64,000 nt of DNA from a virus (IMGVR_UViG_3300022602_000027); one strand, 5' to 3'; counted from the stretch's first letter, positions 11,815-12,863 are shown. A program made the numbers and translations. Notes: generated by a model not told the origin, from the sequence alone.

Positions 11815-12642
11815 ATGGCTACTAATCCATTACAGAAGTATTTTAGACAACCTAAAATTTTTATCAAACTACCTTCAGCTGGCGTTTACTGTCAGCCGGG
11901 CAACATACAAGGTGACAGCAATCACATGCCCGTGTATGGTATGACTGGCATGGACGAAATCATTATGAAAACGCCCGATGCACTACTAACAGGCGAAAGC
12001 ACAGTGCAGGTTATTGCCAGCTGTTGCCCATCAATAACTAATCCTTGGGACTTGCCCACTATTGATATCACTATCATACTAGCGGCAATTCGTATTGCTA
12101 CATTTGGCAATACCATAACCCTAACAGTAAAATGCACAGGATGTGAAAACAGTTCAGAGTACGAAGTTGACCTAAACAGAATTGTTGAACACTATATGGC
12201 TTGTCAGTATGAAAACTCTGTAGTGCTCAAGGATCTAGTGATCAAACTACATCCCTTAACCTACAAAGACAGCACAGCGTTTAATCTACGCAACTTCCAA
12301 CTGCAACAAAAGCTGGTGCAAGTAGACGCAATGCCGGACAATGACGAACGTAAAGCTCTGCTTAAATCAATATTTGAACAGCTGGCTGACTTGCAAACAG
12401 ACATCATTAAGAGCATTGTTGAAAGTATTGACATTGGCGATCAAATTGTGTCAGAAAAGACATGGATCAATGAATGGCTAGTAAACAGCGACAAGAGTGT
12501 GTTTGATGCTATCAAACAGCAAAATCAAAAGAACAATGCTACTTGGGCTGTTCCTCCTATGCCCGTTGTATGTGAGCATTGTGGAAAAGAAGATAAAGTT
12601 GCAGTAGAACTGGACGAATCAAATTTTTTCGTTCAAGCCTAA
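11815..12642 (+). CDS. Baseplate hub subunit / tail assembly chaperone, T4 gp26-like
   Basis: NPLQKYFRQPKIFIKLPS N-terminus, GMTGMDE, CTGC and CEHC Zn-knuckle pairs; ends in slippery ...TCA AAT TTT TTC. Confidence 0.75.
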   Translation: MATNPLQKYFRQPKIFIKLPSAGVYCQPGNIQGDSNHMPVYGMTGMDEIIMKTPDALLTGESTVQVIASCCPSITNPWDLPTIDITIILAAIRIATFGNTITLTVKCTGCENSSEYEVDLNRIVEHYMACQYENSVVLKDLVIKLHPLTYKDSTAFNLRNFQLQQKLVQVDAMPDNDERKALLKSIFEQLADLQTDIIKSIVESIDIGDQIVSEKTWINEWLVNSDKSVFDAIKQQNQKNNATWAVPPMPVVCEHCGKEDKVAVELDESNFFVQA

Positions 12643-12863
12643 TTGGTCTCAGCAATCAAGATATAGAACAACGGCTAATTAGGCTAGACGAAGACATTAA
12701 AACTTTTAAACAAGAAATATTTAGAATATCTTGGTATATGAGAGGCGCAGTCACAGTTTCAGAACTGCTTAATCTCTATAGTTTTCAAGATCGTGATATG
12801 ATATATGCAGTTATCAAAGAGAATCTTGAAGTTACTAAAGAAACACGTATGCCTTTAATATAA
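12627..12863 (+). CDS. Start-less ORF in the -1 frame; predicted frameshift extension of the gp26-like protein (349-aa fusion)
   Basis: 78 sense codons FRSSLIGLSNQDIEQRLIRLDEDIKTFKQEIFRISWYMRGAVTVSELLNLYSFQDRDMIYAVIKENLEVTKETRMPLI*; in-frame TAA at 12594 and no ATG between it and the slip site. Confidence 0.75.
   Translation, partial: FRSSLIGLSNQDIEQRLIRLDEDIKTFKQEIFRISWYMRGAVTVSELLNLYSFQDRDMIYAVIKENLEVTKETRMPLI

Follow-up and report, generated by a model that had tools for sequence, protein, structure and literature searches.

A predicted programmed −1 ribosomal frameshift near the 3' end of a gp26/gp51-family baseplate-hub gene in a RaK2-like freshwater jumbo phage

Results

A gp26-like gene in the T4-like core of a jumbo phage

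The DNA analyzed here is a 64,000-nucleotide stretch (hereafter the window) of the viral genome IMGVR_UViG_3300022602_000027. It comprises the T4-like core of a jumbo phage, with genes for the major capsid protein, prohead protease, portal and gp46/gp47, as well as a gp55-like late sigma factor and gp5-, gp25- and gp6-like baseplate proteins. The same DNA recurs nearly unchanged in lake and freshwater metagenomes of many studies. A nucleotide search of the phage collection returned no match, relatives among isolates being found at the protein level only; the closest cultured relatives of the gene described below are the jumbo phages RaK2/121Q/PA5oct/Atu_ph07 (21–33% identity).

This gene (Table 1) encodes a protein of the gp26/gp51 family of baseplate-hub proteins. 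Its 0-frame product matches the T4_baseplate family PF12322 (E = 9.4e-16; 58.6 bits vs a cutoff of 24.5; residues 60–271) and phrog_150, 'baseplate hub' (2.6e-20), and the T4 proteins gp26 and gp51 score 215.6 and 177.5 bits on the same PF12322 model. Six residues (C107, C110, C253, C256, F271 and F272) are invariant in 39 sequences: two CxxC pairs, which form a putative zinc site, flank a helical insert, and a Phe-Phe motif lies near the C-terminus. The counterpart motifs in T4 gp26 read CTCG...CPECG...EFF. The AF2 model of the gp26-like body has a pLDDT of ~85–95, and its structure matches in BFVD are gp26/gp51-like hub proteins from many myovirus groups (E down to 2e-20). No solved structure resembling this body was found in the PDB, where searches with Foldseek and VIA-align yielded proteasome noise and generic helical hairpins.

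Table 1 Positions of the gp26-like gene, its predicted recoding signals and neighboring features in the window
Feature	Position	Strand	Remarks
Portal gene	6966–8729		adjoins the tape-measure-like gene
Tape-measure-like protein	8733–10694	−	653 aa; weak similarity (E = 6e-6) to RaK2 ORF088
ORF of 351 aa	10696–11751	−	hydrophobic stretches; no family match
T4-type late promoter motif (candidate), TATAAATA	11784–11791	+	23 nt 5' of the gp26-like start codon
gp26-like baseplate-hub assembly protein, short form	11815–12642	+	0-frame ORF, 275 aa; stop 12640–12642
Second formal heptamer A_AAT_TTT	12621–12627	+	same product if used; not kept in relatives
Slip site T_TTT_TTC (predicted)	12624–12630	+	0 frame AAT TTT TTC = N F F; −1 frame TTT TTT C..
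−1 frame extension	12630–12863	+	77 residues after N-F-F (RSSLIG...MPLI); stop TAA 12861–12863
Stimulatory stem-loop (predicted)	12636–12685	+	5' arm 12636–12648; 24-nt loop; 3' arm 12673–12685
Intrinsic terminator	12864–12891	+	terminator scan; 8-bp stem, 4-nt loop, T run
Short element, ~40 nt	12943–12984		inside the ORF-poor stretch 12864–13312
SegE-type GIY-YIG endonuclease	13313–13759	−	148 aa; PF19835, 1.7e-32
gp55-like late sigma factor	16801–17646
ORF of 5392 aa	26943–43121	+	directly 3' of the gp6-like wedge gene

The sequence and placement of a T4-type late promoter motif ahead of the gene, together with the gp55-like late sigma factor encoded in the window, suggest that it may act as a promoter. 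Exact matches to TATAAATA occur only twice in the window (the other copy at 43132–43139), compared to ~10 expected by chance, and both stand just 5' of a gene start codon. This scarcity suggests that other sites avoid the motif, or that the majority of late genes in this phage rely on a variant form. At the other end, the intrinsic terminator starts one base past the stop codon of the −1 frame extension, so that the predicted transcription unit ends with the extension and not with the 0-frame stop.

The gp26-like gene diverges from an operon on the minus strand (8733–11751) that includes the tape-measure-like gene. The RaK2 relative of that gene, ORF088, is annotated in its record as similar to tape measure protein, and the order portal, large structural protein, divergent gp26 is also found in RaK2, PBECO4, CBB, PA5oct and Munch. 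No tail tube gene was found within the window. Several further features of the region deserve mention. RaK2, PBECO4 and CBB have no gene at the position of the 351-aa ORF, which lies between the tape-measure-like and gp26-like genes. The SegE-type endonuclease gene separates the gp26 unit from gp46/gp47 and probably represents an inserted homing endonuclease. The short element downstream of the terminator is common to many much deeper contigs in three lake metagenomes, with a summed depth of up to ~270 vs 4–9 for its flanks, and resembles a repeated or mobile motif that numerous genomes in those samples share. Finally, a single ORF of 5392 codons sits among the baseplate and fibre genes.

A slippery heptamer kept in phase across relatives

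The 0 frame of the gp26-like gene ends TCA AAT TTT TTC GTT CAA GCC TAA. A first-pass annotation of this DNA, which proposed a programmed −1 frameshift at this point, had listed two overlapping in-frame heptamers. To place them in context, we assembled 68 distinct junction sequences from 80 metagenomic (IMG/VR) loci and cultured jumbo phages. The heptamer T_TTT_TTC held up in full: it is in phase in all 68 junctions, as TTTTTTC in 66 and as TTTTTTT in two. The following base is G in 65 of the 68, giving a conserved Arg codon CGN in the −1 frame. Some relatives have longer T runs, namely T7 in Xoo-sp13 and RAS14 and T9 in RsoM2USA. The second heptamer, A_AAT_TTT, is likewise present here, but it is not conserved, since the codon 5' of the T run varies (AAT, AGT, ACT, CAT, CGT, GCT or GAT, always ending in T). 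Judging from this variation, it is peculiar to some lineages and unlikely to be the selected site.

Amino-acid constraint accounts for part of the conservation of T_TTT_TTC, because Phe-Phe is also kept as protein in T4 gp26 (...EFFELL), where the codons are TTC TTT. No upstream Shine-Dalgarno-like element is evident at the locus.

Coding in the −1 frame begins at the heptamer

Read from the heptamer, the −1 frame runs for 78 codons without a stop (12627–12860); counted from its upstream end, it opens 43 nt before the 0-frame stop, and it contains no ATG, GTG or TTG before the Met of WYMRG. A shifted product would comprise 272 + 77 = 349 residues with the junction ...D-E-S-N-F-F-R-S-S-L-I-G..., in line with the length, the open frame and the missing upstream start given by the first-pass annotation. 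The tryptic peptide expected across this junction is VAVELDESNFFR; equivalents are expected elsewhere, for example ...SHFFR in 121Q/PBECO4.

Relatives of the gp26-like protein are encoded at 80 IMG/VR loci (42–67% identity), and each of the 77 loci with enough downstream DNA encodes, in the −1 frame without exception, a homologous extension (41–74% identity). Across all 68 distinct junctions its length stays within 70–80 residues; exactly 77 residues are added in 57 of 67 junctions, while the 0-frame stop wanders 1–11 codons downstream. The heptamer also persists, with a −1 ORF of 72–91 codons, in twelve cultured phages at 21–33% identity, a set that spans Sinorhizobium phage Phosso and Salicola phage SCTP-2 (Phosso, PBECO4, RaK2, PA5oct, CBB, Atu_ph07, BF17, Xoo-sp13, Munch, RAS14, RsoM2USA and SCTP-2).

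The pattern of variation changes frame at the same place. When column entropy is resolved by codon phase, it peaks at the third position of the 0 frame upstream of the heptamer; within 30 nt past the heptamer the peak has moved to the third position of the −1 frame, where it holds to the end. On the 5' side of the heptamer, the median open stretch of the −1 frame is only seven codons, and the extension starts with an invariant F-F-R.

We then modeled the extension. In a model of the fused protein no alignment covered this part, which makes the model unreliable there (pLDDT < 50), and the extension was therefore folded alone. AF2 predicted a four-helix domain (79 residues, 47 sequences; pLDDT 91), whose structural neighbors are uncharacterized phage proteins of 60–73 residues (TM 0.72–0.81); from their size, these are most likely mis-annotated tails of relatives. 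Separately, five stretches of a 1435-aa protein (P0153) match the extension profile (E = 2.4e-13); the small helical domain may also exist in repeated form within a large protein.

A covarying stem-loop downstream of the predicted slip site

The 13-bp stem proposed by the first-pass annotation was recovered, with a perfect 9-bp core. It folds with a minimum free energy of −17.7 kcal/mol (z = −3.9), a value equalled by one in 200 shuffles. Its conserved part pairs 12637–12646 with 12675–12684 and begins 6 nt past the heptamer, within the 5–9 nt usual for canonical −1 frameshift cassettes. Covariation in 33 close relatives bears out the pairing: RNAalifold kept 10 pairs, 90% of cells are paired, and compensatory changes occur at six pairs, several of them synonymous in the −1 frame (e.g., A-U to G-C, in both arms). 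None of 500 shuffles reached the covariation score, and sliding the partner abolishes the pairing. A search of a more distant clade for a consensus structure at a fixed position found none, and several enterobacterial jumbo phages have no conserved or notably stable structure 3' of the heptamer. Across 64 sequences, the 95 nt 3' of the heptamer have a mean z of −1.97 relative to shuffles.

A pseudoknot had also been suggested, in which CAAGATAT in the loop (12657–64) would pair with ATATCTTG further downstream (12726–33). The two arms are exact reverse complements at these positions, but only 56% of cells are paired in the 33 relatives, and we rejected this helix.

Some relatives encode the long form in frame

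Searches were also made for natural proteins that carry the extension without recoding. A word-based protein search with the extension alone found no match among proteins of 192–612 residues; an exhaustive profile search later succeeded. Against 1.84 billion proteins, the extension profile gave 313 matches, mostly short gene-caller fragments. Among the best 150 of these 313 are 20 proteins of 319–351 residues that have the extension in frame at their extreme C-terminus and are gp26-like, with a DEI..R.PD motif and the two Cys pairs. These long forms read through ...L-D-x-S-x-x-F-R-x-K-L-I..., which is the junction that a frameshift would create. In the DNA of two of them the junction lacks a T run (AAT TTT AGA and AGT TTC AGA).

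One locus, L095, shows a two-gene arrangement, with a 294-aa short PF12322 gene immediately upstream of a gene for a 351-aa long form. The long gene has the same extension domain (profile E = 3.7e-15) and the same F-R junction as the locus described here; it differs in that the junction, AGT AGT TTC AGA, is in frame and without a slippery run. Such in-frame long forms next to a separate short paralogue indicate that some phages make both forms from two genes, and, with the junction hard-wired, the ratio of the forms must be set there by the expression of two genes and not by recoding. The short paralogue (L095:411–1295) ends ...AAT TTT TTC ACT..., although only three codons remain open in its −1 frame, which shows that the motif can be retained in the absence of an extension. 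The motif in this paralogue may be a relic of an ancestral slip site.

The comparison with T4 gp51 that the first-pass annotation had called for gave a collinear but weak match. Residues 1–201 of T4 gp51 match PF12322 (3.9e-52) and are followed by ~48 more residues; in database records, gp51 homologues carry a second domain, PF28602. Against a 33-member gp51 alignment, the natural long forms match from end to end, tails included (E = 4.6e-5, probability 69%). The extension alone matches the gp51 family weakly (E = 0.0023 to 0.08) and adds ~1 bit to the full-length score.

Alternative origins of the extended product

A different route to nearly the same protein would be transcriptional slippage, in which the polymerase would insert an extra U at the T6 run, and the few mRNAs edited in this way would be translated normally into the long form. 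The site is indeed a homopolymer run, and some relatives have T7 or T9. Polymerase slippage, however, needs no phase, yet the phase is kept in 68 of 68 junctions; a covarying stem stands at the 6-nt spacing of ribosomal frameshift sites; and T6 falls short of the runs that slip efficiently in bacterial transcription, which are longer than six T (summarized in PMC5009743). We consider this route improbable.

Less probable still is that the extension is a separate small gene, expressed by reinitiation or from a non-canonical start, as GenBank records annotate it. Gene callers do predict proteins of 41–98 residues here, and when the interval from the upstream −1 stop to ten codons past the heptamer was searched, 19 of 68 junctions had an ATG, GTG or TTG near the junction, while the other 49 had no possible start codon at all. 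Against a separate gene, conservation and −1 wobble begin at the heptamer itself, with the invariant F-F-R, whereas the annotated starts vary between records and cut into the conserved domain, and the domain is known from natural proteins as an in-frame fusion at precisely this junction.

Although homopolymer runs are error-prone, a sequencing or assembly error in one continuous ORF, or a decaying gene with a dead tail, is effectively refuted. The same frame break recurs in ~90 assemblies and isolate genomes obtained independently, and purifying selection acts on both frames. Contigs from two lake metagenomes, independent of each other, agree at every base across the site and show no indels in the T run, so that the break is not an assembly error. 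The single RNA contig found spans 12345–12491 only and does not reach the heptamer.

Discussion

We interpret this locus as a programmed −1 ribosomal frameshift in a single gp26/gp51-family gene of a RaK2-like freshwater jumbo phage, to which we assign a probability of roughly 0.86. [quoted passage not shown] That ribosomes slip here, and how often, we infer from the sequences. Under this mechanism, most ribosomes would read AAT TTT TTC and three more codons before the stop, giving the 275-aa short form. A fraction would pause with two tRNA-Phe on UUU UUC, delayed by the stem-loop 6 nt downstream, and both tRNAs would slip one base back onto U UUU UU. The slipped ribosomes would then read 77 more codons in the −1 frame, giving the 349-aa long form with its small four-helix C-terminal domain. 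The products would be a short and a long baseplate-hub assembly chaperone in a ratio fixed by the RNA signal, and other phages would reach the same end with two paralogous genes, one short and one long with an in-frame extension.

Regarding function, T4 genetics places gp26 and gp51 in hub assembly. Both are listed as hub assembly chaperones of T4, gp51 being required for assembly but absent from particles (PMC3004832). In the virion mass-spectrometry table of phage CBB, the neighbor CBB_251 is listed and the gp26-like CBB_250 is not (PMC5259590); similarly, in the PA5oct record ESI-MS/MS detection is marked for the neighbor only. Together with the gene's position, this absence from the records of virion proteins fits an assembly helper in two forms. 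By analogy with T4, the proteins may act as non-virion chaperones, and the long form may be the rarer, 'catalytic' form like gp51. A complex prediction for the 275-aa short form and the 653-aa tape-measure-like neighbor scored 0.01, which is not evidence either way.

A more speculative extension of this interpretation, which we think possible but would not presume, is that in T4-like and RaK2-like phages the gp26/gp51 family does the work of G/GT. The tape measure and hub would be chaperoned by the short form, and the four-helix tail of the rare long form would recruit the hub, the tube initiator or the tube; the one-gene layout would be ancestral or recurrent, and genes 26 and 51 of T4 would be its hard-wired derivative. 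If true, this would explain the T4 'exception' to tail-chaperone frameshifting and make the role of 'catalytic' gp51 testable.

The slip type itself is known. The present case would place canonical −1 recoding in an unrelated family of assembly proteins, for which some phages, apparently T4 among them, have two genes instead. A full-text literature search, which covered few subscription journals, returned no report of a frameshift in homologues of genes 26 and 51. None of the 12 isolate records annotates a frameshift or a joined CDS; where the extension is annotated at all, it figures as a small 'hypothetical protein' that begins at an internal start. As it is wrongly annotated in all isolate records examined, jumbo-phage annotations need correcting. 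Tail assembly chaperone frameshifting is regarded as all but universal among long-tailed phages, T4 being the exception (PMC5009743), and the present locus and its ~90 relatives would add a second, unrelated family, gp26/gp51, that uses the same trick. These proteins are the least understood hub-assembly factors of T4. The same short/long pair, made by recoding or by two genes, suggests a hypothesis to explain why T4 requires gp51 only at low, 'catalytic' levels. The site also offers a clean, deeply conserved test case for frameshift predictors.

The nearest parallel in logic is lambda G/GT, with which the first-pass annotation had equated the pair. For that system, Levin, Hendrix and Casjens (1993) and Xu, Hendrix and Duda (2004) reportedly described gpG/gpGT and the conserved −1 frameshift of tail assembly chaperone genes in long-tailed phages (reviewed in PMC5009743). 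As in lambda, one late morphogenesis gene is predicted to give a short and a C-terminally extended form by a −1 slip; the heptamer lies a few codons before the 0-frame stop, and the extension lacks an independent start. The gene also stands beside a tape-measure-like gene, and the T4 relatives of its product are assembly helpers and not virion parts. Unlike gpG, which has ~140 residues, the short form here has 275 and a four-Cys site, and its gene is divergent from the tape-measure-like gene instead of lying between the tube and tape-measure genes. Homology to lambda G/GT was considered and is unsupported: no tail-assembly-chaperone family appeared among the Pfam and PHROG matches, and PDB searches gave no fold link. 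The sole named BFVD match of the chaperone kind was 'Tape measure chaperone' of phage Moogle (E = 3.4). The equivalence thus stands for the frameshift logic and the short and long forms but not for sequence, fold or gene placement; the likeness is one of logic, not of family, and a G/GT-like division of labor here, with the short part binding the tape measure and the extension the tube protein, would be an analogy.

Escherichia coli dnaX (tau/gamma) provides a second parallel, with a −1 slip on a homopolymeric heptamer and a stem-loop, both predicted here, the latter 6 nt downstream. In both cases two forms of one protein would be made in a fixed ratio, as we propose for this locus. In dnaX, however, frameshifting yields the shorter of the two forms and is aided by an upstream Shine-Dalgarno-like element.

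T4 itself is usually cited as lacking such a system; Atkins et al. (2016; PMC5009743) describe G-T frameshifting as a conserved trait of long-tailed phages, 'except T4'. This citation stands, but T4 does have a short gene 26 and a long paralogue, gene 51. Its gp26 (208 aa, ending ...EFFELL) resembles the short form, and the extra tail of gp51 (249 aa) aligns collinearly, if weakly, with the frameshift extension, being ~30 residues shorter than the extension here. Unlike the single gene of the jumbo phage, genes 26 and 51 are divergently transcribed and have no slip site, the Phe-Phe codons of gene 26 being TTC TTT, and gene 25 follows gene 26 at once. From these alignments, gp51 is likely the equivalent of the long form, and genes 26 and 51 of T4 appear to constitute the short and long members of a two-gene pair.
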